NCBI GenBank assembly: GCA_963806535.1
Contig: CAWDYC010000006.1
Span: forward strand, 96,001-160,000
DNA from: Candidatus Bathyarchaeota archaeon
GTDB lineage: Archaea; Thermoproteota; Bathyarchaeia; Bathyarchaeales; Bathycorpusculaceae
Direction of reading: 5' to 3'
DNA: 64,000 nucleotides
A program made the position numbers and the translations under genes. Position 1 is the first letter of the stretch; the number at the start of each line of letters is the position of its first letter. The notes under the pieces are model-generated. The model was given only the letters and a program-made list of their open reading frames with translations, did no database searches and had not been told where the DNA came from. Positions 15,776 to 62,668 of this stretch are shown here, piece after piece.

Positions 15776-16026
15776 GCTTCGCCTTCCCCAAATTCATTAA
15801 AACAATTATCCAAAATCATGAACAACCCCAAATATAGCTCTTATTGCTTAGGCCGAGCAGCTGCTTGATGTCTCCCTAATACAATTTTTGTCCTCTGGTC
15901 GATTCCCACAAGCTAATTACTGCTCGCTTCATGCGCAATGCATAAGAATTGGATATATTGCGTAGTTAGAAATACCCCTTAAATTTACTCATGATGGTTG
16001 GTTTCATTGGGAAGGCGTACAAAGAC

Positions 16027-45810: not shown

Positions 45811-46506
45811 TTGCAAACAAAAGGAGAGCTTTTACCGTCAATGCAAGTTGTAATAGCTGCATTGAACGAAGAAGAAGGCATAGGACGTACGATTGCCGAA
45901 ATAAACACTGAGTTAAACAATCCTCTTGTACTAGTAGTTGACGGTCGAAGCACCGATAGAACCGTTGAAATAGCCAAGAACATGGGTGCCGACATCCTTC
46001 TTCAAGATAAGCTCGGCAAAGGAAATGCCTTGGCAAAGGCGGTTGAACATTTGGATTCATCAGTTGAATACATAGTCATCACTGATGCAGACTACACTTA
46101 CCCAGCGGAACATGTTCATGAAATGGTTCGCATTCTGCAGAACAACTCCAATGTCGGTATGGTCTGTGGCAACCGATTTAACGGTCATCTTGATAAAAAA
46201 GCAATGCATGATGCTTTTTACATTGGCAACCGACTCATTGCTCTGACCCACAACTTACTAAATGGAGTTCCATTGAATGATCCACTTACAGGCTTGAGAG
46301 TGGTACGTGCCGAAATTCTCAGAAATTGGAAAGTAAAATCGCAAGGTTTCGATATAGAAGTAGAGCTAAACCATCATGTTGAACGTCAAGGCTTTACTAT
46401 TTTCGAAACGCCTATTCAGTATAGACCTCGGTTGGGACAAAAAAAGTTGGGCATCAAACATGGTGCTGAAATTTTGAAACGAATAATGATGGAAACAACT
46501 TATTGA
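45811..46506 (+). CDS. GT2 glycosyltransferase, polyprenol/dolichol-phosphate hexose synthase-like
   Basis: 'IAALNEE', 'VVDGRSTDRT', 'GKGNA', DAD, 'D.LTG.R', 'F.IE.E'. Confidence 0.88.
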   Translation: MQTKGELLPSMQVVIAALNEEEGIGRTIAEINTELNNPLVLVVDGRSTDRTVEIAKNMGADILLQDKLGKGNALAKAVEHLDSSVEYIVITDADYTYPAEHVHEMVRILQNNSNVGMVCGNRFNGHLDKKAMHDAFYIGNRLIALTHNLLNGVPLNDPLTGLRVVRAEILRNWKVKSQGFDIEVELNHHVERQGFTIFETPIQYRPRLGQKKLGIKHGAEILKRIMMETTY

Positions 46507-47017: not shown

Positions 47018-47521
47018 CTGAACAAACATGTTATCATAGTACTAATCGTGATGCTTTCGGTTTTGGCAGTATTACCCGGTTTTCACCTACCATTGGTAAA
47101 AGCTAGTAATGAAACTACAAGCTTACAGGCGGCCGACGCTTCTATCAATCAGGCGTTTACAAACGTCTTAGCGGCAGAAAAAGCAGGTGGCAACGTAACG
47201 CAGCTATTAGCAAAGCTAAATACTGCAGGAGCGCTTTTGGCGGAAGCTGAAAACGCTTATAACACGGGTAACTTGAATAATGTGATTTCAACGGCTGACA
47301 GTGCTCGATTAGTAGCCAATCAGGTTAATAGTGACGCGATAGGGCTTCGAAATTCAAGCATTACTCAATCCCAAAACAATCTACTATTTACCGTAGTTTT
47401 TTCTGTAATATCAGCAATTACTTTTGTTGTTGTAATGTTTTTAATTTGGCGCCGATTTAAACGTGGATTTACCGAAAAATTGCTATCTTCAAAACCAAAG
47501 GTGGTGGAAAATGCAACTTAA
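47018..47521 (+). CDS. Secreted helical-domain protein with C-terminal TM
   Basis: 'AF..VL.AEKAGGNVT.L...LN.A..L' is paralogous to 30523-31113; in-frame CTG at 47018 after GAGGGA extends the signal peptide (ORF track starts at 47048). Confidence 0.72.
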   Translation: MNKHVIIVLIVMLSVLAVLPGFHLPLVKASNETTSLQAADASINQAFTNVLAAEKAGGNVTQLLAKLNTAGALLAEAENAYNTGNLNNVISTADSARLVANQVNSDAIGLRNSSITQSQNNLLFTVVFSVISAITFVVVMFLIWRRFKRGFTEKLLSSKPKVVENAT

Positions 47522-48104
47522 AGACTACAAAATTTTGTTTGTTACCACTGTATTAATCGGTGTTATAATTCTTGCATCACCAACCATAGCGATTTTCATA
47601 AAAACCCCAGTTGGGGAACAGTTCTCTTCAATCTATATGCTTGGGCAAAATCATACATTTGATAATCTTCCGTTTAATGTCAAATCAGGCGTAGTTTATT
47701 CAGTCTATCTTGGAGTTACAAACTACTTGGAATCCTCTAATTACTATACTTGCTCTGTCAAGTTAGCATCTCAAAATGATCGTCTCCCTGATCCGATACT
47801 TGGAACGCCAAGTTCATTGCCCACCTTGTATCAATACAAAACTTTTCTAGCTAATGGAGGAACATGGGAAGTGCCATTAACATTCGAAATAAATAATATC
47901 ACTTTCTCAAACGAGACTTCGACGCTTTCTGACATAAGTATTAATGGCTTAGATTATGCTGTTAATGAAATCTCAGTTTTCGATTCTAGCCGAGCCGGAT
48001 ATTATTACAACCTATTTATCGAATTGTCATTATACAATTCAACCTTGAACAGTCTAAATTATGATGGCAGATTTGTTACCTTAAATCTAAATGTTATTCA
48101 GTAA
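47511..48104 (+). CDS. DUF1616 C-terminal-type domain protein
   Basis: TM then 'GEQFS.IYMLG...P...VYLGVTN'; ATG 47511 overlaps the upstream stop. Confidence 0.75.
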   Translation: MQLKDYKILFVTTVLIGVIILASPTIAIFIKTPVGEQFSSIYMLGQNHTFDNLPFNVKSGVVYSVYLGVTNYLESSNYYTCSVKLASQNDRLPDPILGTPSSLPTLYQYKTFLANGGTWEVPLTFEINNITFSNETSTLSDISINGLDYAVNEISVFDSSRAGYYYNLFIELSLYNSTLNSLNYDGRFVTLNLNVIQ

Positions 48105-48190: not shown

Positions 48191-50083
48191 ATGTTAGAAA
48201 AATTCAAAGAGCATAAGATTCTTATAGCGATAATAATTGTTGCAGGTTTTTTAATATTTTATGTTCTTGGTATTGCGACTAACCTGTTTGCGAATCCTGT
48301 GTTCTCCATGTTTTTTGTTATTAGCAATGATACAGCTCATGAAATTGCATATTTAGCGGTGGTGGGAGCAGTCGCCGCAGTTATAATCGGTCTAATTCTT
48401 CTTAAAAAACAAAGGATCATAGAACCAAAGACAATGTACAAACCCGCCATTTTTAGTAATAGAGCAACTAACCAATTACCAGATAAACCTGTGGATTTTT
48501 TGGGAAAAAGTAAATTCGCTTTTGTATCGCTTTTGATAGGTTTAGCCCTCTTTTTCTACTCTTGGTATAAAACTTATCCAATATCACTGAAATATCCTGG
48601 CGACGCTGTTTTTTATCATATATCGCCGTTCTACTGGATCAGCATTCCTGTAGTATTAGGCTCACTTTACTTGATAGGTGTCTTTTCAAAAAGTCAACCT
48701 GTCAAATGTGCCATAACTGTTGCAATTATATTATTTGTGTACTCTTTATCCTTCTTCTACTTTACAATGCCTACATCTGATTCATCTTACTTTAGAGGAT
48801 TATCTCAAAATTTTATAAATACTCAAAGCTTGAATCCATCTCTATTTATCCATGAATATTATCAATGGCCATCTTTTTTCTTAATAACAGATATTGCAAC
48901 ATCCGTAAGCGGTCTACCTCTTATTAGTTTCGAATTTTTTCTATACGCTTTAATCGGCTCCTTGATAGCTGGATCATTATATGTTTATGCGGCGAAGCTC
49001 AACAAAAATGGCGCAATCATAGCTGTACCTTCATTTTTCTTTGCAATGTTTTACTTCTTAAACTATCAAGCCGTGCCTTTTTCACTCGCACTTGCTTTAC
49101 TTTTTGCAATCTTCATGTTGGAAACCAGAAAAAAAACTACACCTGTAATAGTAACTATTCTAATTTTGTTCTTCTGCCTTTCAATCGCGCATAGCTTTGT
49201 GGCTTTATTCTATATTCTGTATCTATTGTTCCGAAGCCTTGTAAGCAGAAGTAAACTTTATGCGGAAATCTGCTTGGTCGCTACGAACATTTTTGTAATA
49301 ACACAATTCAGTTTAAGCTCTTACTGGATTGGCCTAAATATAACAAACCTATTCCGCTTGCCAACAGAATATAGTTCAATAGTAAGTGCAACGTTGACTG
49401 CAACATCCACAGTTCCAACTCCTATAGATACACTGTCTCAAACACTATCAAGAGCATCTACAATCATTATTCTTCTAATGTGTCTAATTGGTTTCGTTGT
49501 TCTTTTAATTAAACGAAAACTAAGAGCCGTAGATGGAGCCATTTTTCTTGCCGGACTAGCTTACACAGTCTTGGGCCTTGCTTTGTCCTCTTTAGGCTCA
49601 AGGGCTATATCAATCCTTTTTATTCCTTTATCTCTTGGAGCTATGTATTTCCTTGGTACAAAACTAAGACCTTATATAATAGCCCTTTTTCTGATAGTGT
49701 TATTACTGTTTGTCGCCATCCCAATTCATACTTCATTTACTAGTTACCCAATAACATTTCAAACAAAAGATAATCTTACCACATCAAACTTTATGATTGA
49801 GAAGTACAACTGGACTCCATTTAGCACAGTAATCGCTGACTCTGGCATGAGATGGTACATGCTACCACAAATCCAGGGAAAGGCTGAAATCGACACTAAC
49901 CTCCAACCTCGTTTTTCACTTACAAATATTACAAATTATGACTCTATCATCTACTCAATCGGTCTAGCAAATACCCTTCAAAGCAATGGTATTTCCCTTG
50001 AGAATAATTCACAAAGCATTATGCACAGTTACAGTTTGGTTTACAACTCAGGTCAATCATATATAGCGATAAAAAGCAAATAA
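48191..50083 (+). CDS. Polytopic GT-C-like membrane protein with an N-terminal two-TM module
   Basis: >13 TMs; 'SDS.YF', 'YYQWP.FF', 'AH.F', ends 'VYNSG'; same architecture as 26263-27873. Confidence 0.7.
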   Translation: MLEKFKEHKILIAIIIVAGFLIFYVLGIATNLFANPVFSMFFVISNDTAHEIAYLAVVGAVAAVIIGLILLKKQRIIEPKTMYKPAIFSNRATNQLPDKPVDFLGKSKFAFVSLLIGLALFFYSWYKTYPISLKYPGDAVFYHISPFYWISIPVVLGSLYLIGVFSKSQPVKCAITVAIILFVYSLSFFYFTMPTSDSSYFRGLSQNFINTQSLNPSLFIHEYYQWPSFFLITDIATSVSGLPLISFEFFLYALIGSLIAGSLYVYAAKLNKNGAIIAVPSFFFAMFYFLNYQAVPFSLALALLFAIFMLETRKKTTPVIVTILILFFCLSIAHSFVALFYILYLLFRSLVSRSKLYAEICLVATNIFVITQFSLSSYWIGLNITNLFRLPTEYSSIVSATLTATSTVPTPIDTLSQTLSRASTIIILLMCLIGFVVLLIKRKLRAVDGAIFLAGLAYTVLGLALSSLGSRAISILFIPLSLGAMYFLGTKLRPYIIALFLIVLLLFVAIPIHTSFTSYPITFQTKDNLTTSNFMIEKYNWTPFSTVIADSGMRWYMLPQIQGKAEIDTNLQPRFSLTNITNYDSIIYSIGLANTLQSNGISLENNSQSIMHSYSLVYNSGQSYIAIKSK

Positions 50084-50170
50084 AAACTATCAAGTGGCTA
50101 TTTCAAAATTCAGTCGATACTTACCCAAAGCTTAGTTCAAACCCAACTTAACATCTATAAAAAACTGTAG

Positions 50171-51034
50171 CTACCTTTTTGTTGCCAAAACGATGTATTG
50201 CGATCCACTTGAGCGTAGAATCGGATATCCCTTATCAGCGTACCCTTGAAGTTTTTGTTGTATTTTTATTGATGATTCTCCCGGAAATAAATTGTAACCG
50301 CATAAAGTAAATGGACCAAATCCCACACTTGTACTCTTTAGCACTTTCATACCGCACTGAACCAGCGTCTGGTCGAATTTTTTGGGCGAGTGCTGACGAT
50401 AGGGAGGAGCGTTTTTCCAACAATTCATCGATGTGAGTAAACCTGCTCTTTCAAGTTTATATCTAAGAAATCTTCGAAGCTCTGCTATTGCAGGGAAAGT
50501 TATCGGATCAAGTAGGGTTGTTGCTCTTAACGAGTTATCCACGGTTAAGATAGCATGTCCGTTTGGCGATAGTACCCTTACTATCTCTGAAAGTGCCTTC
50601 TTAAAGTCGTGAAGCCATGGGATAACTCCTAAAGCAACAATTAGATCAAAAGATCTATTGGGGTAAGATAACTTATGTACATCTCCAGTATGAGCATTAA
50701 TCCTGTTAAGATTCCCTGTTCTTTTTGCATTTTCAATTGTAAGATTTACCATTGCCTGAGTATGGTCAATGGCTTCCACGGTAAATCCACGTTTTGCAAG
50801 AGCTACAGCAAGATAACCTGCCCCGGAGCCGATTTCAAGAACACGAGTTGATTTTGGAAGCGATAGTCCATCTACGTAGCTTAGAGCTGCAGTCTGCCTT
50901 TGCTGATAAATGATCCCCTGAATATCATTGTCTTGGTAGGTATCCCTCCAGTAAGTAGCCTGGGTATCAAAAAGATCATCTACACGTCTCTGAGAAAGGT
51001 TGGTTTCGGCATTTAAAGGTGACATATACAACAT
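50171..51034 (-). CDS. Class I SAM-dependent methyltransferase
   Basis: VLEIGSGAG, 'GDV..L.YP..SFDLI', 'EIVRVL.P.G'. Confidence 0.9.
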   Translation of the reverse strand: MLYMSPLNAETNLSQRRVDDLFDTQATYWRDTYQDNDIQGIIYQQRQTAALSYVDGLSLPKSTRVLEIGSGAGYLAVALAKRGFTVEAIDHTQAMVNLTIENAKRTGNLNRINAHTGDVHKLSYPNRSFDLIVALGVIPWLHDFKKALSEIVRVLSPNGHAILTVDNSLRATTLLDPITFPAIAELRRFLRYKLERAGLLTSMNCWKNAPPYRQHSPKKFDQTLVQCGMKVLKSTSVGFGPFTLCGYNLFPGESSIKIQQKLQGYADKGYPILRSSGSQYIVLATKR

Positions 51035-51173
51035 CTTAACTTAAATCTTCTCTACTTAACAAATAAACGATTCAAATTGTCTTTTATCTTTATTTATTAG
51101 AATATCAAGAATCATTGGAGAAAAATAGATAACTATGAGCTTCACTTAATCGACCCAAATGACTTAACAATCG

Positions 51174-52001
51174 GTGAATAAAATGGTTAACGTTAAATCA
51201 AATTCCCAACATAGGTTGCATACCACAGATTATCTAAAATCAATTGGCGTTTCAGAAATTATGCCCGCAACAAGTCCATTCGACCCAGGTTATGACCTCG
51301 TTACTTTAGCGAGTCATCTCGAGCAGAGCCATCATCTTATTTCAATTCTAAAGGTTTCTATGGCGTGCTGGATGATAGCAAATGAAGATGTCAGTCGAAA
51401 AAAGATATCGGCCGCAAAAAAATATGGCGTGCCAACAACAACCGGTGGAGGACCTTTTGAGGTTGCCTATGTCCAAGGTAAATTAGATAAATATCTTGAC
51501 TTAGTGGCTGATTTTGGCTTTACCCGAATCGAATGTGGAGAAGGTTTCACTGACATCTCTCTAAACGCTAAAGAAATTGTGAAAATGGCAAACGATAGAG
51601 GCTTAGAAGTTCAATTCGAACTTGGCAAAAAACATGAAGGCGCCTTTACAAACGACATTGTAGATGCATTGATAGATCAAGGAAAAAAATGGCTTGAAGC
51701 TGGAGCTCTCCAACTAGTTGTTGAGGCAAGGGAAAGTGCAAAAGGAGTTGGGCTATTTGACAACGAAGGAAATCTTAACATTCAATTCGCAGACAGATTT
51801 GCCAATGCTTTTGGCCACGGAACTGTTATGTTCGAAGCACCAAACAAGCCAAGTCAATTCGCCCTATTAGACCACTTCGGCAGAGATGTTCATCTTTGCA
51901 ATGTTCGAATCGAAGAGTTATTGCGAGTTGAAATTTACCGAAGGGGCCTGCACTCAGATGCTTTTAACAAAGAAAATCTCCGTCCGAGACTGCCACAATA
52001 A
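51174..52001 (+). CDS. comA: Phosphosulfolactate synthase
   Basis: D.G, 'GG..FE', 'ELGKK', 'VEARES...GLF', 'FEAP.K..Q', 'E..RRGL..D' ComA pattern; adjacent to comB. Confidence 0.88.
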   Translation: MNKMVNVKSNSQHRLHTTDYLKSIGVSEIMPATSPFDPGYDLVTLASHLEQSHHLISILKVSMACWMIANEDVSRKKISAAKKYGVPTTTGGGPFEVAYVQGKLDKYLDLVADFGFTRIECGEGFTDISLNAKEIVKMANDRGLEVQFELGKKHEGAFTNDIVDALIDQGKKWLEAGALQLVVEARESAKGVGLFDNEGNLNIQFADRFANAFGHGTVMFEAPNKPSQFALLDHFGRDVHLCNVRIEELLRVEIYRRGLHSDAFNKENLRPRLPQ

Positions 52002-52018
52002 AACAGGAGAGAAAACAG

Positions 52019-52732
52019 TTGCCGTCAAAAGTAGTTGCTATCGATTGCATAACCGAATGTTCAAAGCAATATGATAAAGAAACAGCAGTTATAGTCATTG
52101 ATGTAATTCGGTCTACGACGGTGGCAGCAACAATTGTGGAGTCTGGAAGAAGATGTTTTTTTGCACCTTCAACTGAAGGAGCTATTCTTCTAAAAAAACG
52201 TCTCCAAAGGCCATTAATGGTAGGCGAAGTTGGCGGCAACATGCCCTATGGTTTTGATTTTAAAAACAGCCCAGTAGATGTTAAAAAATATCCTGATAAA
52301 TCCAGACCAGTAATTATTGTATCTACATCTGGAATACCGCTACTTTATTCCTTGAGAAATTGCGGTTCACTTTACGTTGGGTGCTTGCGAAATTATACCG
52401 CGACTTGCAATTACCTTGCTAGACGTTATAGTCGCGTGAAATTGTTTGGAGCGCCCACCCGTGGCGAATTTCGTGAGGAAGATAAGTTGTGCTGTTCCTG
52501 GATTGCAGCAAGTCTATTGGAAGCCGGTTTCACTTGCGAAGATGCGAAAACCCTGCAAATTGTGAATAGTTGGAAGGATAAGTCAGTTACCGTATGTGGT
52601 GAAGGGAATAGTGCAAAATATCTTATAGAAACTAGGCAAAAAAGAGACCTTAATTTCATACTCAAACATGTAAACGACTTTAATTACGCTCTCACTATTG
52701 AGGGCGATGAGATTGTTAAGATACCAACTTAG
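52019..52732 (+). CDS. comB: 2-phosphosulfolactate phosphatase
   Basis: 'VIDVIRSTT', 'GE.GG...GFD..NSP', 'STSG', 'CLRN', 'EDKLC'. Confidence 0.9.
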   Translation: MPSKVVAIDCITECSKQYDKETAVIVIDVIRSTTVAATIVESGRRCFFAPSTEGAILLKKRLQRPLMVGEVGGNMPYGFDFKNSPVDVKKYPDKSRPVIIVSTSGIPLLYSLRNCGSLYVGCLRNYTATCNYLARRYSRVKLFGAPTRGEFREEDKLCCSWIAASLLEAGFTCEDAKTLQIVNSWKDKSVTVCGEGNSAKYLIETRQKRDLNFILKHVNDFNYALTIEGDEIVKIPT

Positions 52733-52737
52733 ACTAG

Positions 52738-53979
52738 GTGACGAAAGCGTCTAAATTCACTATATCGGACACAAGAGTTCCTGTTGTTGTTTTGTACACT
52801 TATCATTACGGTCAATTAGGCCTTCTACGCACATTTGGGAGACTTGGAATTGAAGTGCACGGCGTAGATCCACATACAACTTCACCTGGCTTATTTTCAA
52901 AATATTGTCGAAAGAAATTTCTATGGGATGTTGACGGCAAAGATCCTCAATCGTCAGTTCAATATTTACTAGCAGTTGCAAAAAAGATTGGGAAGCGTTC
53001 TATTCTGATACACACTACAGATAGTGGTTCAAGCTGGCTTGCGGAAAATGCCAACTCTTTGAGTGAAGGCTTTATCTTTCCAAAACTTCCAGCGCAGCTT
53101 GTTTATGCGCTAGCCGACAAAAAGGAGATGTATTTTTTAGCGAAAAAGTTTGGGATTCCGACTCCTGACGCATGTTTTCCCATTTCAATGGATGAAGTTC
53201 AAACCTTTTCAGAAGAAGCAACTTTTCCATTAGTCATGAAGGAAATGTATCGGAGTAGGTCCCCACGCTTTGGCAAAAGAATGTTTATAGCAAACACTAA
53301 AACCCAATTACTGAACCTATACAAACTTCATGAAGACTTCTCTGAGCCCAGCTTTATGCTTCAGGAGTATATTCCTGGCGGAGACGACTCTATTTGGATG
53401 TTTAACGGTTATTTTAATGAGAAATCAGAATGCTTGTTTGGCATAACAGGCAGGAAAATACGTCAATCTCCAATCCACAAAGGAGTCACTTCTTTAGGTA
53501 TTTGCCTTCACAATTCTGATGTCGATCAATTAACAAAACATTTCATGAAGAGCATAGGTTACAAAGGTATACTTGATATTGGATACAGATACGACTCTCG
53601 AGATGGAGAATACAAAGTTCTCGACGTTAATCCTCGCGTGGGATCGAGTTTCCGTCTATTTGTTGCGTCAAATGGATTAGACGTTGCCAGGGCTGCATAT
53701 TTAGACCTAACAGGTCAGCCAGTTCCGAAAAGTGAAATTATTGAGGGAAGAAAGTGGTTTGTTGAAGACAGGGATTTAATTTCCAGTATTAATTATCGTT
53801 TTGAAAAGAGCCTAACGTTTAGGCAATGGATGACTTCATATCGAGGCGTCCGAGAGAGCGCCTGGTTTGCATGGGATGATCTTCTTCCCTTCTTTGTCCA
53901 AAACTTAAGGTTTTCAAGAAAATTCATTTCAAGATCCGACAAAAGCACGTTAAACCCCTATAGAATTATCCCTAATTAA
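52738..53979 (+). CDS. ATP-grasp carboxylate-amine ligase (D-aspartate-ligase-like)
   Basis: 'R.FGR.GI', 'SKYC', 'DK..MY..A...GIP.P', 'QEYIPG.D', 'KIRQ.P...G', 'D.RDGEYK.LDVNPR'. Confidence 0.85.
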   Translation: MTKASKFTISDTRVPVVVLYTYHYGQLGLLRTFGRLGIEVHGVDPHTTSPGLFSKYCRKKFLWDVDGKDPQSSVQYLLAVAKKIGKRSILIHTTDSGSSWLAENANSLSEGFIFPKLPAQLVYALADKKEMYFLAKKFGIPTPDACFPISMDEVQTFSEEATFPLVMKEMYRSRSPRFGKRMFIANTKTQLLNLYKLHEDFSEPSFMLQEYIPGGDDSIWMFNGYFNEKSECLFGITGRKIRQSPIHKGVTSLGICLHNSDVDQLTKHFMKSIGYKGILDIGYRYDSRDGEYKVLDVNPRVGSSFRLFVASNGLDVARAAYLDLTGQPVPKSEIIEGRKWFVEDRDLISSINYRFEKSLTFRQWMTSYRGVRESAWFAWDDLLPFFVQNLRFSRKFISRSDKSTLNPYRIIPN

Positions 53980-54233
53980 GGCGTTTTTCTGGCTCTAAAC
54001 GATTGATTATAATCTGCAGTTTTAAGTTTTATTAAACTTGCATTAAATCTGCTTCTATAAAGGGAATGCTTAAAGACTGAGAGTTAATTTGGATGTATGC
54101 TTAAATGACTAATAATATCCTTATATGTTCATCAATTTGAGTGATTAACTGTGACCTCTAAAACGAAAAGAACCTTTGAGAAAGCTGCTACTTGGACTTG
54201 GCTCGAGCTAAACAGGTTATATAATGAAATTTC

Positions 54234-54867
54234 TTGGTGATTAAAATGGTATTTGCTTTAAAGACTATATTAGCTGTTGGAGCGCACCCAGATGACATTG
54301 AACTAGGCTGTGGCGGGACTATATGCAAATCTATCCAAGCAGATTCAAAAGTTGTTGCTTTGTATATGACAAAGGGCGGGAAAACATTTGATACTAATGT
54401 GCGAATGAATGAAAGCATAAAAGCTATGAATATACTGGGGGTCAAAGATATTTATTTTGAAAATTTCCCTGACACTGAAATTCCCGATTCTTATCAAGCC
54501 ATAAACTGCTTAGAAGAATATTTTACGAAGTACCAGCCAGACATCGTACTTACGCATTCGGTCAATGATACTCATCAAGATCATAGGCGTGTAGGGTGGC
54601 TGGCTATGTCAGCGTTCCGGAACGTTGCAAAGATTCTTGCCTTCGAAACGCCTAGAGTGAAGGCCTGCAAACTTTTTGCCAACTTTTTTTGTTAACATTA
54701 CAGGATTTGTTGATAAGAAATGGGAAGCATTGCGCTGCCATGTTTCTCAAAACGAAAAGCGATACCTCGCATATGAATCAACTGTCAATCTAGCGTTTTT
54801 TAGAGGAAGCCAAGTTGGAGTTCAATCAGCTGAGGCTTTTGAAATTATCAAATATTTAGATGCATAA
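54234..54867 (+). pseudogene. PIG-L/LmbE-family N-deacetylase with a frameshift near 54670
   Basis: AHPDDIELGCGG and DTHQDH; the C-terminus 'FVNIT...KK.EAL..H.SQ...AEAF' is in ORF 54676-54867. Confidence 0.85.
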
Positions 54868-55897
54868 TTTTGTACATGCCAAAACACTGGAGTTATATAG
54901 ATTGGATGAAAAGTTTAAGGTCGCTGTCATTGGATTAGGCAAGATGGGCCTATTGCACGCAAGTATATTGAGCACTCTACCAAACGTTGAACTGGTTGCC
55001 CTCTGTGATAAGAGTTCGTTGATCAGAAGATTCGGTCGAAAACTTCTCAAAGGGATACAGGTGGTTGATGATTCAGCGAAGATTTTAGATTTTAAACCTG
55101 ACATCGTTTATGTAACAACCCCAATTCCATCCCATTATTCAGTAATATCTGGTTTATGCTCCAATGGAGAGATGCCTCACTTGTTTGTTGAGAAAACGCT
55201 CTCTTCAAAATATGATGATTCGGTTAAACTAATCGAACTTGCTCAGAGATTTAAGAAAGCAAATATGGTTGGATACATGAAAAGGTTCTCAGTTACATTC
55301 AATAAAGCCAAAGAATTACTGGAGCAAGAGGCAATTGGTCAAATAATTTCTTTTGATGCTTACGCTTTTTCGTCAGATTTCTTTGGGCTCGAAGAGAGCA
55401 AACAAGCTTCATCAAGAGGTGGGGTCATAAGTGACTTGGGCTCTCACGCGATAGATATGGCTTTATGGCTATTCAAGGAATTTGAACTCAAATCTGACTT
55501 AGAAAACAAGGTAACTAAGGATGTAGCACATTTTAATGTAGAAAATTCCAAGGGAATTAAAGGAAAGTTTGAGATGTCATGGTCAAAAGAAGGCTATCAT
55601 ATGCCTGAAATTGGAGTATTAATCAGCGGAGATACAGGTAAAATCAAGGTTAATGATGATTTGGTGGAATTGCAATCAAATTCCGGATCCACAAAGGCGT
55701 GGCATAGACATGATCTCCAAGATAATGTGGGCTTTCTGTTAGGAGATGCAGAATACTATCGAGAGGACGAATACTTCGTCAATTCAATAACTAAAAAATC
55801 TCAAATTGAATCGGATTTTGTTTCCGCCTCCAAGGTTGATTATATAATAGAGAAAGTATCAGACAGAGCTGAAAACATTGCAGAAAAATCAAGATAG
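54860..55897 (+). CDS. Gfo/Idh/MocA oxidoreductase
   Basis: GLGKMG, 'EKTL', 'VGYMKRF', 'GG...DLGSH.ID'. Confidence 0.9.
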   Translation: MHNFVHAKTLELYRLDEKFKVAVIGLGKMGLLHASILSTLPNVELVALCDKSSLIRRFGRKLLKGIQVVDDSAKILDFKPDIVYVTTPIPSHYSVISGLCSNGEMPHLFVEKTLSSKYDDSVKLIELAQRFKKANMVGYMKRFSVTFNKAKELLEQEAIGQIISFDAYAFSSDFFGLEESKQASSRGGVISDLGSHAIDMALWLFKEFELKSDLENKVTKDVAHFNVENSKGIKGKFEMSWSKEGYHMPEIGVLISGDTGKIKVNDDLVELQSNSGSTKAWHRHDLQDNVGFLLGDAEYYREDEYFVNSITKKSQIESDFVSASKVDYIIEKVSDRAENIAEKSR

Positions 55898-56786
55898 ACT
55901 ATTACTTGTCGGAGATAACCCGTTCCATGGTATTAGTCATCTCTCCCAAGAAAGGGTTAGAAATCGGGGCAGACCGATAAATGACCCACACTTTGCCGCG
56001 AATTTGGTTGAAACTTCTATTCATAGCGGTGCTAACGGCTTCATGTTTTCAGTTAGCGACACCACTTTATCAATACTAAACATACTAACTAAAGACACGA
56101 CTATCGATCAAGTCAATCTCTATCCCCTAGTTCCTTACGCTTACGAATATGTCAGACTTGCTACTCACGCAGGCGGAATACCTGGGCTAGGAAAAAGAAT
56201 GGCTAAGCAAATTGTAAAATCACGAAATGCATCAGCAGCATTTTTTGGCTTAAAAGGAATCCTGACAGTAAACGGCATGGACTTAATGAAAGCCTATTTG
56301 GCATACGAAATTTCCAGAATAAAGACATCGGTCCATAAGAAAGGAATTGTGCGCTCAGTACTACTTCATGAAGTAGTGACTGATATGTGTCTAGCTTTAA
56401 ACATAGATTCACTCTTCAAGTCCTACATTGAATTTTTGCAAAGTAGAAAAATTAAGCCAGGCTTTGAAACAAGAAATTTCCCCTTCCTTTTGAAAAAATT
56501 GGGTGAATGGGAGATTAATTCAGACGATATTCTGATCGCGGCTCCATTTAATAAAATTGGTTTTTACATGAATCCATCTAAAAATGAATGTGAAGTAGCC
56601 CTCTCAACTCTCCATAAACCCAACGTTATAGCTATGAGTATTTTAGCAGCAGGCTATCTTAAGCCCTCAGAGGCTATAGAATATATTGATAACCTCCCAA
56701 ACATCAATTCCATAGTTGTAGGTATTTCAAGCGGGCAACAAGCGAGTTCAATATCGCAATTCCTTGTAAATAGCAGGCATTCATAG
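55878..56786 (+). CDS. TIM-barrel (aldo/keto-reductase-like) hypothetical protein
   Basis: 'GDNPF.G.SH', 'PFN..GF.MNP', 'AMSILAAG', 'VVG.SS'; coupled to the oxidoreductase. Confidence 0.65.
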   Translation: MQKNQDRLLLVGDNPFHGISHLSQERVRNRGRPINDPHFAANLVETSIHSGANGFMFSVSDTTLSILNILTKDTTIDQVNLYPLVPYAYEYVRLATHAGGIPGLGKRMAKQIVKSRNASAAFFGLKGILTVNGMDLMKAYLAYEISRIKTSVHKKGIVRSVLLHEVVTDMCLALNIDSLFKSYIEFLQSRKIKPGFETRNFPFLLKKLGEWEINSDDILIAAPFNKIGFYMNPSKNECEVALSTLHKPNVIAMSILAAGYLKPSEAIEYIDNLPNINSIVVGISSGQQASSISQFLVNSRHS

Positions 56787-56861
56787 CATAGATAAACTAA
56801 ATTTACAAGAATATAAATCTCAGTTTAAGAGCAAACACCAATACTAAATAAGGGATATTAT

Positions 56862-58094
56862 ATGGATAGAACTGCGCTGTGTATGCTTGCTCCAGAATTC
56901 TTACCCGTGTGGGGTGGCACAGGCTCATACACAGTTGAACTAATCAAATCATTGCCAAAAAACGTAGACATCGATGTTATCACACTAAAACGAAGCATTG
57001 ATGGAATGGCTAACGGTGCTAATAATCAAAGCATCATTGATTCAATAATAAAACGACCGATAAATGTTCACTATCTAAGTGAGTCTCATGAAACATTTTT
57101 TTATAATTTCGCATTCCAAAGTGCTTGCTTCTTTAGGCTTCCACTCATAAACAAAAAAGCTAATTTTGACTTGATTCACTCCCACTTAGTCCATATGCCG
57201 GACGTTTATCTGCAAATATTCAGGCAGGTCAATGTACCCACAGTTGTTACTTTGCATGGAACAATACAAATGCTTAGAGATCACGCTATAATAGCACGCG
57301 AACTATTTCATGATCTTGAGGCTGGGGAAAAATCTATCCTCCGCTTTTATCCAATAATTAGGCAACTGCAAGAGTTCTACGCAAAGCGCATAACGCGATT
57401 TATCGCTGTCTCTAAAGTGACCAAAGAGTTGGCTGTAAAACATTTAGGTGTTGATCCAAGCAAAATCAGCCTGGTATATAATGGAGTTGACACGGATCTA
57501 TTTCATATTCCAGATGAAGATGAATTAAACATCAAGAACTCGAGACCTTCAATTGTCTATGTAGGCCGGATTATTTCCAAAAAAGGGATTGATGTTCTTA
57601 TCAAATCGATGCCCGAGGTTCTCAAGTTTTGCCCCAAAGCTCGTTTTATTTTTGTGGGCGGCGGCAACATATCCTTTTATAAAGAAATGATCAAAAGCAA
57701 AGGAATATCTAAGGACAATTATTTGTTCACAGGTCACATGGGCTATTCAGAACGCTCAAAAATAATGCGAGAGGCAACCATCTTCGTAAATCCTTCCTTC
57801 TTCGAGAACTGTTCAATAAGTATACTTGAGGCAATGAGTAGCGGCTGCGCGGTTGTTGCTAGCAATGTGGGCGGAAATCCTGAACTGATACATTCTGGGC
57901 AGAATGGTTTACTTGTACGTCCGTTTGATCATGATGCTTTTGCAAAATCAATAGTTTCATTATTACAAGACGAGTCAGAAAACAGGTTAATAGGAAAAAC
58001 AGCGCGAATGACAGTAGAAGAATCTTTCTCTTCGAAAAAATGTGCAGAAGAAACATACAAAGTATACAAGAAAACCATTAACTCGCATCAATGA
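56862..58094 (+). CDS. GT4 glycosyltransferase
   Basis: P..GG, YNGVD, VGR...KG, 'ENCSISILEAM'. Confidence 0.92.
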   Translation: MDRTALCMLAPEFLPVWGGTGSYTVELIKSLPKNVDIDVITLKRSIDGMANGANNQSIIDSIIKRPINVHYLSESHETFFYNFAFQSACFFRLPLINKKANFDLIHSHLVHMPDVYLQIFRQVNVPTVVTLHGTIQMLRDHAIIARELFHDLEAGEKSILRFYPIIRQLQEFYAKRITRFIAVSKVTKELAVKHLGVDPSKISLVYNGVDTDLFHIPDEDELNIKNSRPSIVYVGRIISKKGIDVLIKSMPEVLKFCPKARFIFVGGGNISFYKEMIKSKGISKDNYLFTGHMGYSERSKIMREATIFVNPSFFENCSISILEAMSSGCAVVASNVGGNPELIHSGQNGLLVRPFDHDAFAKSIVSLLQDESENRLIGKTARMTVEESFSSKKCAEETYKVYKKTINSHQ

Positions 58095-58152: not shown

Positions 58153-59172
58153 TTGAAACCAAAACTTAGGAAAAGTCAAATAATGGCGATAATTAGCGAA
58201 ACCCCTGAAATAAGCGTTATCTTGGCAACTAGGGGCGACAAAACAGATTTATTAAAGAACTGTTTAGATTCATTGAAAAAACAAAAGTTTAAAGATTTCG
58301 AAATCATTATTGTGGCAAAAAAATTTCCCCAACAATTTCAAAGTGTTTTAGAAAGCGAGCAAATTAAATTTGTTGAGGAAAAAGGAACAACACTGGGTGC
58401 AGCTCGAAATTTAGGAGTAAATAATGCTACAGGGAAATTGGTTTCTTTTATAGACGATGACGCAGAAGCATCGCCTAATTGGCTAGAAAAAATAAGTTTG
58501 ACCTTCTCTCAATTTCCATCAATTAGCTGCCTAGGCGGACCACACTTTACACTTCAAGACAAATCCAAAAACGACCCCTTAAATTATGTCGAGGGTCTTT
58601 TTTTTGAAGGTCGTTCCCAAATAGTCTATTTTGACAAGTCAGCAATTGGAAAAATTGCGGGTTGCAATGTAACTTATAAGAAATCGGTGTTTCAAGAATT
58701 AGGTTGTCTAAATGAGAATTTAAGAACTTGTGAAGATTGGGATCTTAATGGCAGATTATTAGAAAAAGGGTACACTCTCCGTTTTGATCCGGAGATTTGG
58801 GTTTGGCATCGCAGGCAAGGGTTAAAGCATGCTTTCAAAGGTAGTTCGAGAAGTGCACCGTTTTTCTTATCTTGGAAAACGCTTAAACTCGCAAGATACG
58901 AGCCTATCATTGCTTCGTTTTATGCTTCAAATTTACTCTTTATTTTACTTGTTATTTCTTTGTTTATTTCTCCATATCTCACTGTATTTTTATTCCTTGC
59001 ATCTTTATTTGCATACGTTATCTTCAACGCGGTAAGAACTCATACTTATAATCGTAAAATCATATATTTTCCACTGGTAGTTTTACTTACAGTTGCAAGA
59101 ATTCTAGGATTCTATTTTGGCTTAGTTAAAAACGCAGCCTTTAGGTTACGTATTCTGATTTCACGTAAGTAG
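58153..59172 (+). CDS. GT2 glycosyltransferase with C-terminal TMs
   Basis: 'ARNLG', 'FIDDD', 'GCN', 'EDWD', VWH. Confidence 0.9.
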   Translation: MKPKLRKSQIMAIISETPEISVILATRGDKTDLLKNCLDSLKKQKFKDFEIIIVAKKFPQQFQSVLESEQIKFVEEKGTTLGAARNLGVNNATGKLVSFIDDDAEASPNWLEKISLTFSQFPSISCLGGPHFTLQDKSKNDPLNYVEGLFFEGRSQIVYFDKSAIGKIAGCNVTYKKSVFQELGCLNENLRTCEDWDLNGRLLEKGYTLRFDPEIWVWHRRQGLKHAFKGSSRSAPFFLSWKTLKLARYEPIIASFYASNLLFILLVISLFISPYLTVFLFLASLFAYVIFNAVRTHTYNRKIIYFPLVVLLTVARILGFYFGLVKNAAFRLRILISRK

Positions 59173-59291: not shown

Positions 59292-60464
59292 ATGAAAGTA
59301 TGTTTCGTTACTAACATCTTCCCACCAGACTCTTTGGGCGGTCCCGGAGAAGTTGTATATAACCTTCAAAAATTTATGATTAAACAGGGAATAGAAGCTT
59401 ACGTATTTACATGTGGCACAAACGACCGAAGGTACGCCAAAACTATAAGGACTTTCGGGGGTAAACGGCTTTTCCCTATTGTGAGCCCACTTTATTTCAA
59501 GAAAATTAAGAAAAATCACTTTGATATTATTAATTTCCATAGCGAAAGCGGTATGGGCATTGCTCCATTGATGTATTTTAATAGAACTTCTAAAATCATT
59601 ACAACTTTGCATAGTGAAGTTCTGACTGAAAGCAATTCAACAAAAGCCGTTATGATCGCTGATTCAGTCATAGAGAACCTTAGTCAAGAAGAATTAATAA
59701 CAAAACACCTGCTTGCTCTAATCAAAATCACCGGCATTTACATGGATATTGCAGTATCAAAACGAATCATCGCCGTATCAGAAAAAACTAAACAAGATTT
59801 CCTGAGACAACATCAAATTCCTCAAGAAAAAATATCAGTAATCCACAACGGTGTTGACTCCCAGAGATTCAACCCAAAAGTTTCAGGAGAAGCTATCCGA
59901 AAAACTTACTCTTTAGGCAGTTCTCCGCTTATTCTAACAGTCAGCGGTAATATATTTATAAAAGGCACAGTTTTTGCTCTTTACGCTTTAGCCGAAGTTG
60001 CAAAAACTTTTCCTCAAGTGAAGCTTATTGTCCTTGGAGTTAGCGACAAGAATAAAGAGCGCCTCTACCCGATATTAAAGAATCTTGGAATTCAAAAAAA
60101 TGTTTCTATTATAGGGTCGATTCCTAATTTTGAAATGCCTTTTTACTATTCATCTTCTGATATAGTTCTATTTCCTTCTCTTTCAGAGAATTTTCCAATT
60201 GCTCTGTTGGAAGCCATGTCTAGTGCAAAGCCAGTCATCGCATCAAGGGTTGGGGGGATACCTGAAATTGTGAGCAACGGCAATAACGGAATTTTTGTTA
60301 GCCCAGGTAATATTGAAGAAATAGCCAAATCTCTCTTATATCTTCTTGAAAATCCATTAATCGGAAGAAAAATGGGTGAAATGGGGCGAAAAATAGTTCA
60401 AGAAAAATTTGATTGGGAAAAAGTAGGGAGAGCCTATTTGAAAGAATTCGAAAGTGTAATGTGA
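59292..60464 (+). CDS. GT4 glycosyltransferase
   Basis: FPP...GG, HNGVD, 'ENFPIALLEAM'. Confidence 0.92.
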   Translation: MKVCFVTNIFPPDSLGGPGEVVYNLQKFMIKQGIEAYVFTCGTNDRRYAKTIRTFGGKRLFPIVSPLYFKKIKKNHFDIINFHSESGMGIAPLMYFNRTSKIITTLHSEVLTESNSTKAVMIADSVIENLSQEELITKHLLALIKITGIYMDIAVSKRIIAVSEKTKQDFLRQHQIPQEKISVIHNGVDSQRFNPKVSGEAIRKTYSLGSSPLILTVSGNIFIKGTVFALYALAEVAKTFPQVKLIVLGVSDKNKERLYPILKNLGIQKNVSIIGSIPNFEMPFYYSSSDIVLFPSLSENFPIALLEAMSSAKPVIASRVGGIPEIVSNGNNGIFVSPGNIEEIAKSLLYLLENPLIGRKMGEMGRKIVQEKFDWEKVGRAYLKEFESVM

Positions 60465-61606
60465 GTATCTCCTTAGGTGAGAATTTGAATATATTATGTT
60501 TCTTTCCTGGAATGAGCATGCAAGTAAACGATAATGCTCATATGCTTATCAGACTCAAGGAAAGAGGCCTTAAATTAGTAATTGTAACTGGTAAGTCGAT
60601 GGCTTTGAAAGGGGAAGGGAATCTTCCAATTTATGAAGACATGGATGGCATTCCTATCCATAGACTTTATGAAAATCCTCAAGAAATGTTTCTTTTTCCA
60701 GGAAGAAGATTAAACGAGGTCTTGGAAATAGCTGAGGATCTTAAGCCTGATATAATACTTTGTGAGCCAGAGCTGAATATTAGGTTAGCACTTTTGGTTC
60801 AAAAACATCTGAAAAAACCCATAGTTCTCTTAGTTGAAAGTGCAGGACGACTTTTGTCAGGCGAAGTACATAGCACTCTTAAAATGAAAACTGTCATGTC
60901 TCTGTTTGGAATACCGCATGGCCCAAAATTCTGGTCCTGGTTATGCGAAAAAGCCGACGTTTTGATTACAAGTAGTCCCAAAGATAACAAAATTCTCGAT
61001 CAATTGTCGAAACACAATAAACCGGTATTTTATCTTCCATGGCCTTCACATATACCTGAAGGTTTCGAAAATGCCGTCAAGCGTGAAAATGGTGTTGGTC
61101 TGTATATCGGGTCACTCTATCCATTCAAAAACACACAAGAATTTGAAAAAACCTTACCGCTAATTTTGGAAAAAACGAAAACTAAACAATTTGTTGTGGT
61201 TGGGTCGGGCCCACATGCTTCTGTTGTTAGAAAAATCCAAAAACAATACGGTCAATCAATACGTTACATAAGTCATTTGTCAAGAACTGAGTCGCTAAGA
61301 TTGATGTCAGAGAGTTTCTACGCCTACACACCAATAAAAATAGGTGGATGGGGCTTCATTGGCGATTGTTGGAGTACAAAAACTCCTATTATAATGACTC
61401 ATAATGATGACGATTATGTGCTTAACAATGTAAATGCTTTGGTTGCGGAAAATGAGAATGATTTTATTGAAAATATTAACCGCCTTTACAACGATAGTGA
61501 ATTATATCAGAAGCTTCAGACGAATGGGTATGAAGAATACAGAAAGAGAAATGCAGCGGTCGTTGGCGACGCATTATATGATATTTTAGGGAAGGGATTA
61601 CGATAA
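60413..61606 (+). CDS. Divergent GT4 (GT-B) glycosyltransferase
   Basis: 'DGIPIHRL', 'PDII', 'YIGSL...KN', 'VVGSGP'; the E-x7-E motif is degenerate (GWGFIGD); true start probably 60461 or 60485. Confidence 0.78.
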   Translation: MGKSRESLFERIRKCNVSISLGENLNILCFFPGMSMQVNDNAHMLIRLKERGLKLVIVTGKSMALKGEGNLPIYEDMDGIPIHRLYENPQEMFLFPGRRLNEVLEIAEDLKPDIILCEPELNIRLALLVQKHLKKPIVLLVESAGRLLSGEVHSTLKMKTVMSLFGIPHGPKFWSWLCEKADVLITSSPKDNKILDQLSKHNKPVFYLPWPSHIPEGFENAVKRENGVGLYIGSLYPFKNTQEFEKTLPLILEKTKTKQFVVVGSGPHASVVRKIQKQYGQSIRYISHLSRTESLRLMSESFYAYTPIKIGGWGFIGDCWSTKTPIIMTHNDDDYVLNNVNALVAENENDFIENINRLYNDSELYQKLQTNGYEEYRKRNAAVVGDALYDILGKGLR

Positions 61607-61699: not shown

Positions 61700-62668
61700 A
61701 TGCTTAAGAAACATGCCTTTGCGATATGCCTTTGTTTGATAACTTGTTTCTCATCTTTAACTTTTAGCGTAATGGCTTTAAATTCAGCTCAGATCGCACT
61801 ACCTTCGTATGGTAACGTTTTACTTACACCTACGTCGACTCCAACGCCTACATCCACTCCATCGCCAACACCCACGCCTACACCTAATCCAACTGCAACC
61901 ACATCACCAACTTCCACACCTCAGCCCACCACAACTCCGACACCGAGTCCAAAACCTACACCTTCTCCTACTCCAAAACCCACGTCCACTCCAACGGCAG
62001 CGCCCACATCAACACCAAAACCCACGTCTACCCCAAAACCAACATCTTCTCCCACGCCCTCTCCTACCTCAACACCAAATCCGAACAATTTGGAGCCGCT
62101 AAACGCTTTCTACGCGGATATGAATGGTGCAGCTTCGTCGTATGCGTCGCTTGACACTACAGTTCAGCATAATGGGTATCCAAGCATCAAAGTGGGTCCA
62201 GATTACGTTCGAGGCACACGGGAAGTTGATGGAACATGGATAAGCGTAAAACCTGGCGACCATATAGTGTTTAGCTGCTGGATAAAAACGGCTGCTTTCA
62301 GTACGCCTTATACATGGGGTGAAGGTGGGAGTATTGGAATGGATTTCTATATCCAGAGCAACTTGGGTTACGGAATAGCAACGTTGGACAGTGCAGGACA
62401 TCAAGCTGGGCATCCTAGCGATGGTGAAAATGTGAATGATGTGTGCCGTGTTAAGTGGGGCCAAGATTGGACACAAGTAACCTGGGACATCCACGTACCA
62501 ACACAATACTTCACTTATGTAACTATTTCAACCACTTCGCTTCCATACGCACCTTATACCTGTAATCCAGTCCAGATTAATTCAATGGTTCCATGGTTCG
62601 AGGTTCGAGACGTAACTGATAATGCTTATGCTTGGTTTGCTAACCCAACATTTTACGTAAACCCATAG
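61700..62668 (+). CDS. Secreted protein with long Pro/Thr linker and CBM-like C-terminal domain
   Basis: Signal peptide, ~85 aa of PT/PS repeats, 'VKPG....FSCWIKT', 'DWTQV', 'AWF'. Confidence 0.75.

Follow-up and report, generated by a model that had tools for sequence, protein, structure and literature searches.

Introduction

Homologues of ComA and ComB, the enzymes of the entry steps of coenzyme M (CoM) biosynthesis, are encoded side by side with an ATP-grasp ligase and a methyltransferase in a 64,000-nucleotide stretch of DNA from Candidatus Bathyarchaeota archaeon (assembly GCA_963806535.1, contig CAWDYC010000006.1, positions 96,001 to 160,000 of the forward strand; this whole stretch is called the window below). 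The closest described counterparts are the methanogen enzymes, such as the ComA of M. jannaschii (1QWG), which belong to the same two families and have the same expected reactions, from phosphoenolpyruvate (PEP) and sulfite to phosphosulfolactate and from there to sulfolactate. Compared with the methanogen system, the window cassette scores below the equivalog cut-offs, has no comC or comDE nearby, forms an operon with a ligase and a methyltransferase, and occurs mainly in bacteria.

Sulfolactate is also made for a purpose other than CoM by Bacillus subtilis, in which yitC and yitD encode ComB and ComA homologues that produce the sulfolactate of spores; there the product stays free, and neither a ligase nor glycan genes are involved. 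The solved ComA homologue of B. subtilis (1U83) is a much weaker match to the window ComA, at 59 bits. On archaeal surfaces, sulfoquinovose-containing N-glycans and sulfated glycans provide sulfur-based negative charge. In sulfoquinovose, the sulfonate is placed on a sugar carbon by an SQD1/Agl3-type enzyme, whereas the window locus contains no SQD1/Agl3-type gene and its sulfonate would sit on an acyl side group.

Two further systems resemble parts of the cassette. The authors of the misaugamycin study predicted that misNOPQ, which includes a ComA homologue, supplies a 2-sulfoacetyl N-acyl tail (PMC9136965). As in the window, the ComA homologue stands in a small mobile cassette and a sulfonated acyl group would be N-linked, but the misaugamycin module uses an acyl-CoA ligase and an acyl carrier protein in place of an ATP-grasp enzyme, has no ComB, and acts on a peptide antibiotic (PMC9136965). 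In the capsule locus of Campylobacter jejuni, the ATP-grasp enzyme Cj1438C links a small charged molecule to a sugar through an amide, in a pathway that also has a dedicated phosphatase (PMC11800379 and its references 38 and 39). Cj1438C differs in belonging to a TupA-like subfamily and in activating the sugar carboxylate and adding an amine, the reverse of the N-sulfolactyl scheme considered here (PMC11800379).

Here we describe the cassette of the window and its relatives. Our proposal is that the mobile four-gene unit (methyltransferase, ComA-like, ComB-like and ATP-grasp proteins) would be an accessory surface-polysaccharide module that joins sulfolactate to a glycan component, a proposal that we regard as evenly balanced between right and wrong.

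Results

The comA-comB-ligase order is a conserved unit in two domains of life

The cassette of the window consists of the following genes.

50171-51034, minus strand: class I S-adenosylmethionine (SAM) methyltransferase, divergent from comA (Pfam Methyltransf_11, 71.4 bits)
51174-52001, plus strand: ComA-family phosphosulfolactate synthase homologue (PF02679, 168.5 bits; cut-off 25.2)
52019-52732, plus strand: ComB-family 2-phosphosulfolactate phosphatase homologue (PF04029, 114.5 bits; cut-off 26.4)
52738-53979, plus strand: ATP-grasp carboxylate ligase of 413 amino acids, of an uncharacterised family (weak Pfam matches and predicted fold)

Read directly in the sequence, the gaps are 17 nt between comA and comB and 5 nt between comB and the ligase gene, and GGAG precedes the comB start. 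The methyltransferase gene is separated by 139 nt from the comA GTG (51174); the ATG at 51183 is the likelier comA start because the database copy of ComA has 272 amino acids. A sequence-only reading of this DNA had described comA, comB and the ligase as tightly coupled, with 17- and 5-bp gaps and a divergent methyltransferase, and the open reading frames (ORFs), the direct reading of the gaps and the methyltransferase match all agree with it.

To survey the cassette, one genome per species was scanned with the ligase, and the best 80 of 113 confirmed loci were kept with flanks of up to 10 kb; all 80 derive from metagenome-assembled genomes (MAGs). The window proteins were compared with these loci by tblastn, counting matches of at least 100 bits, and contiguity was defined by gaps below 400 bp. 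ComA and ComB homologues were found in 55 of the 80 loci, and the exact contiguous order ComA, ComB, ligase in 44 of 80, while in another locus, L005, the sequence breaks off within ComB. The methyltransferase was also present in 37 of the 55 ComAB-positive loci. The sequence-only reading had named normally unlinked comAB and ligase genes as a refuting condition; these counts, from loci that were all selected through the ligase, reject it from the ligase side. The repetition of the gene order in 44 of 80 independent loci makes chance an unlikely explanation, and comA-comB-ligase is a real, conserved functional unit. In the following, the window and the 55 ComAB-positive loci are counted together as 56 cassette loci and are compared with the 25 surveyed loci without ComAB.

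By record labels, the 55 ComAB loci belong to ten phyla of two domains: Acidobacteriota (32), Bathyarchaeota (10), Ignavibacteriota (4), Bacteroidota (3), and Chlorobiota, Chloroflexota, Myxococcota, Binatota, Pseudomonadota and Methanobacteriota (1 each). The three-gene order itself was found in eight bacterial phyla. ComA is the most conserved cassette gene, with 57-88% identity to the window copy across the 55 loci; the corresponding ranges are 36-80% for ComB and 45-75% for the ligase. The identities of ComA and ligase to their window copies correlate (Spearman 0.68, n = 55), as expected for a unit whose genes move together.

The best relatives of the window genes come from 12 MAG contigs labelled Bathyarchaeota or Bathyarchaeia. 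A quick maximum-likelihood tree was made from 81 ligase ORFs, and it puts the window ligase in a fully supported clade of 11 Bathyarchaeia rows. Rows of Methanomicrobiales, Ignavibacteria, Bacteroidota and Chlorobiaceae surround this clade, and the nesting branches are unstarred, with support of 85-94 in an unrooted tree. Judged from these sequence relationships, transfer of the cassette between Bacteria and Archaea is likely. In the closest relative locus (L010, 2809-4591) the matches to ComB and ligase are fragmentary, and the related database protein has 305 amino acids and covers 73% of the query, which shows that broken frames occur in related assemblies too.

A predicted route from phosphoenolpyruvate to a sulfolactyl group

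From family membership and conserved motifs, ComA would add sulfite to PEP in the first step, and ComB would then remove the phosphate to give free 3-sulfolactate. In the third step, the ATP-grasp enzyme is predicted to activate a carboxylate as an acyl phosphate and join sulfolactate to a glycan component, most likely by an amide bond from the carboxylate of sulfolactate to the amine of a sugar; in Bathyarchaeia this amine could be freed by the adjacent PIG-L deacetylase. Speculatively, the cassette methyltransferase might modify the sulfolactyl group in a fourth step, for example at the 2-hydroxyl. The cell surface or exopolysaccharide would thereby acquire a sulfonate with a C-S bond and a permanent negative charge. 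By analogy, removal of the phosphate by ComB could also follow ligation, as in the Campylobacter pathway.

The second step is where insertions of LarA homologues bear on the pathway. Within the cassette or next to it, a LarA homologue is encoded in 8 of 56 cassette loci compared with 0 of 25 loci without ComAB; its gene is placed between the methyltransferase gene and comA in L024, L027, L044, L047, L055 and L074, and nearby in L038 and L069. The Lar_N domain matched at 125-139 bits, and the best NCBIfam matches were to the nickel-dependent malate racemases LarAH6 (181 bits; cut-off 500) and LarAH5 (170 bits), both below cut-off. LarA racemases act on 2-hydroxy acids, a class that includes sulfolactate, the sulfonate counterpart of malate. 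The occurrence of a malate-racemase-like LarA in the cassettes thus supports free sulfolactate as INTERMEDIATE, and the insertions fit a pathway in which free sulfolactate would be an intermediate. The LarA homologue itself may be a sulfolactate racemase and is a candidate for this activity.

The methyltransferase accompanies ComAB closely. Its ORF cluster was present in 34 ComAB-positive loci versus 1 negative locus, and the window protein aligns over its full length with the orthologue of Terriglobia cassettes (38% over 274 amino acids, E 6e-70). Its similarity to the methyltransferases of the sister modules described below does not extend beyond the SAM-binding core. Such a separate orthologous group, associated with ComAB, suggests that the cassette methyltransferase acts on the sulfolactate moiety; a search of the Protein Data Bank (PDB) returned only generic class I enzymes, at best 51 bits, and gave no substrate lead.

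The cassette usually lies among glycan-assembly genes

The neighbours of the cassette in the window are listed below.

45811-46506, plus strand: glycosyltransferase GT2 upstream of the cassette (Pfam)
47048-48104, plus strand: DUF1616 pair of two ORFs, 47048-47521 and 47463-48104 (Pfam)
48191-50083, plus strand: membrane protein with 14 transmembrane segments (transmembrane prediction)
54247-54866, plus strand: PIG-L/LmbE-type N-deacetylase gene with a +1 frameshift near 54659 (PF02585, 95.8 bits on the N-terminal 153 amino acids)
54860-55897, plus strand: GFO/IDH/MocA oxidoreductase of sugar or inositol type, using NAD(P) (Pfam GFO_IDH_MocA, 50.3 bits)
55878-56786, plus strand: soluble conserved protein of 302 amino acids without a known family (ORF with conserved homologues)
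56862-58094, plus strand: glycosyltransferase GT4 (Pfam)
58153-59172, plus strand: glycosyltransferase GT2 (Pfam)
59292-60464, plus strand: glycosyltransferase GT4 (Pfam)
60413-61606, plus strand: glycosyltransferase, weakly GT4-like (Pfam, 32 bits)
61700-62668, plus strand: secreted Pro/Thr-rich protein among the glycosyltransferases (signal peptide, Pro/Thr-rich sequence)
62809-63900, plus strand: glycosyltransferase GT4 (Pfam)

Thus five glycosyltransferases lie downstream of the cassette and one upstream. The five downstream genes had been named in the sequence-only reading, and all were found again by Pfam, the one at 60413-61606 weakly. The same reading had placed a PIG-L deacetylase and oxidoreductases after the ligase. 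The family match of PIG-L holds at 95.8 bits, but its reading frame is broken; likewise, the GFO/IDH/MocA oxidoreductase was verified, but the ORF at 55878-56786 gave no Pfam, NCBIfam or PDB match.

The arrangement recurs in Bathyarchaeia as a block of GT2, DUF1616 pair, methyltransferase, ComA, ComB, ligase, PIG-L, GFO/IDH/MocA, the protein without known family, GT4, GT2 and GT4. The order from GT2 to ligase is complete in the window, L001, L007, L008, L009 and L011, and L006 has the DUF1616 pair without the GT2. Terriglobia carry the cassette within a co-directional exopolysaccharide locus of the Wzy type, as an insertion that separates the initiating sugar transferase from a flippase-like gene with 10 transmembrane segments. 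Before the cassette stand genes for an AAA/PEGA protein, a tyrosine-kinase-like ATPase, a NusG-like regulator, a UDP-sugar dehydrogenase, an epimerase/dehydratase and the initiating sugar transferase. After methyltransferase, ComA, ComB and ligase come the 10-transmembrane flippase-like protein, an APH-like kinase, an FkbM methyltransferase and Wzy, and then a beta-helix protein, a polysaccharide deacetylase, a GT4 and a WecG/TagA protein.

Across the survey, at least one glycan-assembly gene was found within 10 kb in 43 of 56 cassette loci, the window included, versus 8 of 25 loci without ComAB, a contrast that is biased because the gene-class hidden Markov models (HMMs) were built from our own clusters, mostly of cassette loci. 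Co-occurrence of comA-comB-ATP-grasp with glycan clusters, which had been proposed as a check, is seen in these 43 loci. The other 13 cassette loci showed no glycan gene by the same HMMs. At least 7 of these 13 lie on contigs shorter than 9 kb, and L038 holds a flippase. Asparagine-synthase-like and AMP-binding genes, which we take to be associated with exosortase-type polysaccharide loci, were found in L074, one of the 13, and in L042 and L022, which are not among them.

The best-surviving alternative is that the product is a soluble or lipid-bound small molecule, such as an N-sulfolactyl amino acid, an osmolyte, a signal or a head group, and that the proximity to glycan genes is a loose association. 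In several Acidobacteriota loci, the three genes stand alone as an operon flanked by opposite-strand genes, and this self-contained ComA-ComB-ligase operon lies beside PilZ, GGDEF and sigma-54 activator genes, with histidine-kinase genes also among its neighbours. Such an arrangement, the 13 of 56 cassette loci without a detected glycan gene within 10 kb, and the presence of the L-amino-acid ligases RizA and BL00235 among the structural neighbours of the ligase all favour a small molecule, and free sulfolactate does accumulate in Bacillus spores. However, the regulators around the stand-alone operons are of the cyclic di-GMP and biofilm type, and genes for polysaccharide export and initiating transferases are found no more than 10 kb away. 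Moreover, the Terriglobia cassette sits between an initiating sugar transferase and a flippase-like gene in a co-directional polysaccharide locus, and the Bathyarchaeia cassette is found inside a block of six glycosyltransferases. We therefore consider a small-molecule product unlikely, and somewhat favour the view that the cassette product ends up on a glycan.

Possible carriers of such a glycan were also seen in the window. The signal-peptide protein at 61700-62668 (plus strand) contains Pro/Thr-rich tandem repeats (61829-62052) and is a plausible O-glycosylation substrate. Two large secreted-type proteins are encoded at 15991-20124 (plus strand; 1377 amino acids, with Kelch, PKD, Ig-like and GINT1_N domains) and at 41928-45401 (plus strand; 1157 amino acids, with PKD/Ig domains). 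It is possible that they are surface (S-layer-like) proteins and candidate glycan carriers.

The PIG-L deacetylase and the acceptor of the ligase

Since sulfolactate offers a carboxylate but lacks an amine, the simplest ATP-grasp chemistry for this cassette would be an amide to a sugar amine. In the window, PIG-L is the next gene after the ligase, with a spacer of 267 nt, and the same holds for 10 of the 11 related cassette loci of Bathyarchaeia; this adjacency points to an amine acceptor. The nearest solved relative is a GlcNAc de-N-acetylase, since the intact PIG-L of L002 matched the archaeal diacetylchitobiose deacetylase 8bgn at 76 bits. PIG-L also precedes an SbnB-type module in L049, and a polysaccharide deacetylase is present in the Terriglobia cassette loci.

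In the window, the PIG-L frame stops at 54695 after 153 amino acids, and the C-terminal part resumes in another frame to 54866. In the DNA alignment with L010, L001 and L002, the window gene has one extra base near 54659; the relatives are intact, with about 209 amino acids. The frameshift may mean that the gene is truly a pseudogene or that the assembly is wrong at this base. A subtilase (Peptidase_S8) of the window is likewise split, into overlapping ORFs at 13696-14889 and 14837-15775 (minus strand) that match consecutive parts of the Pfam model. With this second frameshifted gene in the window, the PIG-L frameshift may be an assembly error.

The ATP-grasp ligase and its sister modules

The ligase matched Pfam only weakly (CPSase_L_D2, E 1.2e-5), and its assignment to the three-domain ATP-grasp fold, of which we are confident, comes from the predicted structure. 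The AlphaFold model has a pLDDT of 89.3, and Foldseek placed it near PurK, biotin carboxylase and the L-amino-acid ligase RizA, with probability 1.0 and TM-scores of about 0.6; the L-amino-acid ligase BL00235 is also among its structural neighbours, which are 11-18% identical. A single-sequence search of the PDB with the ligase gave no match, and a profile search gave only generic ATP-grasp matches of at most 24 bits. The family comprises at least 4094 proteins (E <= 0.001), among which we identified no characterised member, and no curated family of Pfam or NCBIfam covers it; the source labels "D-aspartate ligase" and "carboxylate--amine ligase" on its relatives are names only. Across 52 homologues, 47 residues are invariant, including K128, K168, Q209-E210, D296, N298 and R300. 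From sequence, the lysines, the QE pair and the D-x-N-x-R stretch would be ATP/Mg-binding residues typical of the superfamily.

A sister arrangement was found in 16 of the 25 ComAB-less loci (L049, L052, L057, L058, L063, L065-L068, L072, L075, L077-L080 and L034), in which a ligase 45-53% identical is paired with an ornithine-cyclodeaminase (OCD)/mu-crystallin protein and a different, unrelated methyltransferase. The OCD protein has its best NCBIfam match in the SbnB family (232 bits, below cut-off). Some of these modules, too, stand among polysaccharide genes: L077 has DegT, Wzy, GT4, methyltransferase, OCD, ligase, AsnB-like, GT4 and deacetylase genes, L058 has WecG, an epimerase and a GT4 with the sister module, and L049 has PIG-L, a pyridoxal-phosphate decarboxylase, OCD and ligase. 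Ligase-type modules are a plug-in for polysaccharide loci, a general pattern across the ComAB and SbnB-like versions. The ligases paired with SbnB-like enzymes would install a second, different side group.

One locus provides a natural swap between the two versions. L034 carries the SbnB-like (OCD) gene and a methyltransferase at the position taken by methyltransferase, ComA and ComB in the syntenic loci L031, L040 and L043. Both of its tandem ligase copies are 62-70% identical to their counterparts, compared with 62-77% among the ComAB loci themselves and 57-84% for the flanking genes.

Several of these observations, together with the 13 cassette loci in which no glycan gene was detected, count against the proposed transfer of sulfolactate to an amino sugar. 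A swap without extra divergence of the ligase speaks against an enzyme restricted to sulfolactate as its acyl donor. In a comparison of 52 ComAB-linked with 16 SbnB/OCD-linked ligases, no donor-specific column was found at 0.8/0.7, and looser thresholds gave only four conservative columns. The ComAB label changes 12 times on the ligase tree, so that it does not mark one clade; with shuffled labels the mean was 24.0 changes, and 0 of 500 shuffles were as low as 12. The ligase is remote, at 11-18% identity to anything solved and without a curated family. PIG-L is confined to archaeal cassettes, missing from bacterial ones and frameshifted in the window, and a deacetylase or sugar aminotransferase lies within 10 kb in just 19 of 56 cassette loci. 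The ligase sequences leave three options: specificity set by few residues, a permissive enzyme, or a main substrate that is the partner common to both versions.

The last of these options fits the opposite polarity, in which the ligase would activate a glycan carboxylate, for example of a uronic acid, and the 2-hydroxyl of sulfolactate would attack to form an ester, with the product of the SbnB-like enzyme attacking through an amine in the sister modules. VanA-type ligases use the hydroxyl of a 2-hydroxy acid (D-lactate) as the nucleophile, an analogy that we count in favour. The small change of the ligase on the swap of supply modules would be easier to explain if its main substrate were a common glycan carboxylate, and a UDP-sugar dehydrogenase is present in 10 of 56 cassette loci. 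The characterised capsule amidoligase Cj1438C also activates the C6 carboxylate of glucuronic acid (PMC11800379). On the other side, TupA-like ATP-grasp, the family of Cj1438C, was not among the Pfam and NCBIfam matches of the window ligase, and uronic-acid genes are missing from the window and from 46 of 56 cassette loci. Furthermore, the PIG-L adjacency of Bathyarchaeia suggests an amine acceptor, and ATP-grasp enzymes that form esters are the exception. Taken together, we judge the ester quite unlikely.

For the amide reading, an N-sulfolactyl amino sugar is plausible as the specific product, and we put forward an amide to a deacetylated amino sugar as a tentative assignment of the linkage. 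The fullest form of the proposal, that a cassette moved between Bacteria and Archaea installs 3-sulfolactate as an acyl side group on amino sugars of surface glycans and extracellular polysaccharides, perhaps O-methylated or racemised by a LarA-type enzyme, and that SbnB-paired ligases install a second side group, would be possible but is doubtful as a whole.

ComA and ComB are predicted to make sulfolactate outside coenzyme M biosynthesis

The window ComA scored 171.5 bits against TIGR03849 (arch_ComA, the CoM equivalog; cut-off 280), and the window ComB scored below the cut-offs of all eight NCBIfam equivalog models, at best 77.2 versus 235. Against solved structures, ComA matched M. jannaschii ComA (1QWG/24fo) over nearly its full length at 124 bits, and ComB matched 1VR0 at 49.7 bits. 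The ComA stretches ELGKK, EARES..G and FEAPNK align with TEVGKK, EGRES..G and FEAPQK of 1QWG/24fo; we take Lys137 to be a catalytic residue. By the near full-length alignment and these motifs, the window ComA looks like a working phosphosulfolactate synthase.

It could be argued that a different nucleophile or phospho-acid is the substrate of the ComA and ComB homologues, and that the ligase attaches a non-sulfonated hydroxy acid. Such a view would accommodate the scores of both proteins below the NCBI equivalog cut-offs, the moderate similarity of ComA to solved enzymes (124 bits), and the result that no sulfite-supplying gene was recurrent in the neighbourhoods. But ComA can be aligned with the solved structures from one end to the other, with the conserved motifs preserved; no other cassette gene is as conserved (57-88%), and sulfite addition to PEP is the sole chemistry that we know for the ComA family. 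We regard a non-sulfonated product as improbable; on the sequence evidence, the cassette probably makes sulfolactate.

Families of the later CoM steps were absent from the surroundings. No ComC (Ldh_2), ComDE (TPP) or methyl-coenzyme M reductase (MCR) was found among the 74 ORF translations of the window scanned against Pfam, which bears out the earlier statement that comC and comDE are absent from the window, and no ComC, ComDE or MCR family occurs among the 52 annotated recurrent neighbour families of the ligase loci. To our knowledge, most phyla that host the cassette are not known as CoM users; one related locus (L016) is labelled Methanomicrobiales. Some Bathyarchaeota carry MCR genes (PMC10117817). 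The reading of comA and comB as entry steps of CoM biosynthesis with the ligase as a mere neighbour, for which the family names, the MCR genes of some Bathyarchaeota (PMC10117817) and the label of L016 could be cited, was rejected as highly improbable because comC, comDE and mcr are absent from the window and the recurrent neighbourhoods, the three-gene order extends to eight bacterial phyla, and both proteins score under the equivalog cut-offs.

The proposal that the CoM entry enzymes are repurposed here is well supported by the conserved non-CoM cassette, the sub-equivalog scores and the lack of comC and comDE alongside. It is very probable that the cassette is a functional unit unrelated to CoM, and the conclusion that comAB here is not a sign of CoM metabolism is well founded.

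Other features of the window

The GFO/IDH/MocA gene had sub-threshold NCBIfam matches to inositol 2-dehydrogenase and archaeal UDP-GlcNAc 3-dehydrogenase, and its best PDB matches were the unnamed oxidoreductase 3e18 (57.7 bits), then DgpA (53.8 bits) and inositol dehydrogenases. The following ORF (55878-56786), which has no transmembrane segments, was assigned in the Atlas to an aldo/keto-reductase cluster with a score of 0.75, a lead only by the tool's own grading. Its 2266 homologues are called "hypothetical" where named, except four labelled "DUF486 family". The two genes occur together in 6 loci including the window, and in Bathyarchaeia loci they are always paired.

The archaeal DUF1616 domain is present in several window proteins by Pfam. 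The DUF1616-type protein upstream of the cassette is made of two ORFs, the second always in the +1 frame, in seven assemblies (window, L001, L006, L007, L008, L009 and L011), with an overlap of 59 nt in 4 of the 7 cases, the window included. The pair represents two genes that overlap or else a programmed frameshift that has been conserved. A comparable split into two pieces is found at 30141-31113 (minus strand), where the second piece corresponds to DUF1616 positions 177-296.

At 1665-2386 (minus strand), a PIN-domain protein adjoins a MazE/AbrB-type antitoxin, a probable toxin-antitoxin pair. Over the whole window, Rfam gave 0 matches and the tRNA scan 0 tRNAs. Bacterial promoter and terminator models gave counts not above shuffles in 50000-57000; the host is an archaeon, and these models may not apply to it.

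Discussion

ComA homologues that serve non-CoM sulfonates and ATP-grasp amidoligases in capsule loci are already known. The predicted donor module for glycan decoration described here, which combines ComA, ComB and an ATP-grasp ligase, often with a methyltransferase, brings these two themes together. In the open-access literature that we searched, we found neither a ComA-ComB-ATP-grasp(-methyltransferase) cassette in glycan loci nor a sulfolactyl glycan.

The finding matters first for annotation, since pipelines read comA and comB as CoM genes and thus as hints of methane or alkene metabolism, which would be wrong here and in at least 55 related loci. It also raises enzyme candidates, namely the ligase family with its at least 4094 members, the cassette-specific methyltransferase, and the LarA homologue as a possible sulfolactate racemase. 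Furthermore, the cassette is a clear case of a multi-gene surface-modification unit common to Bathyarchaeia and bacteria.

If the product is a sulfolactyl glycan, the cassette would provide a new route to a permanently charged, hydrolysis-resistant anionic surface, unlike those based on sulfate esters or sulfoquinovose. The hosts of the cassette are Acidobacteriota, Ignavibacteriota and Bathyarchaeia of peat and soil, which are among the commonest organisms there. If true, the proposal would connect the exopolysaccharide of these dominant microbes of soil and peat with the sulfonate fraction of organic sulfur in soils. It would also add a glycan modification of a new class, and a biological source of carbon-bonded sulfonate sulfur in soil that has gone unrecognised.

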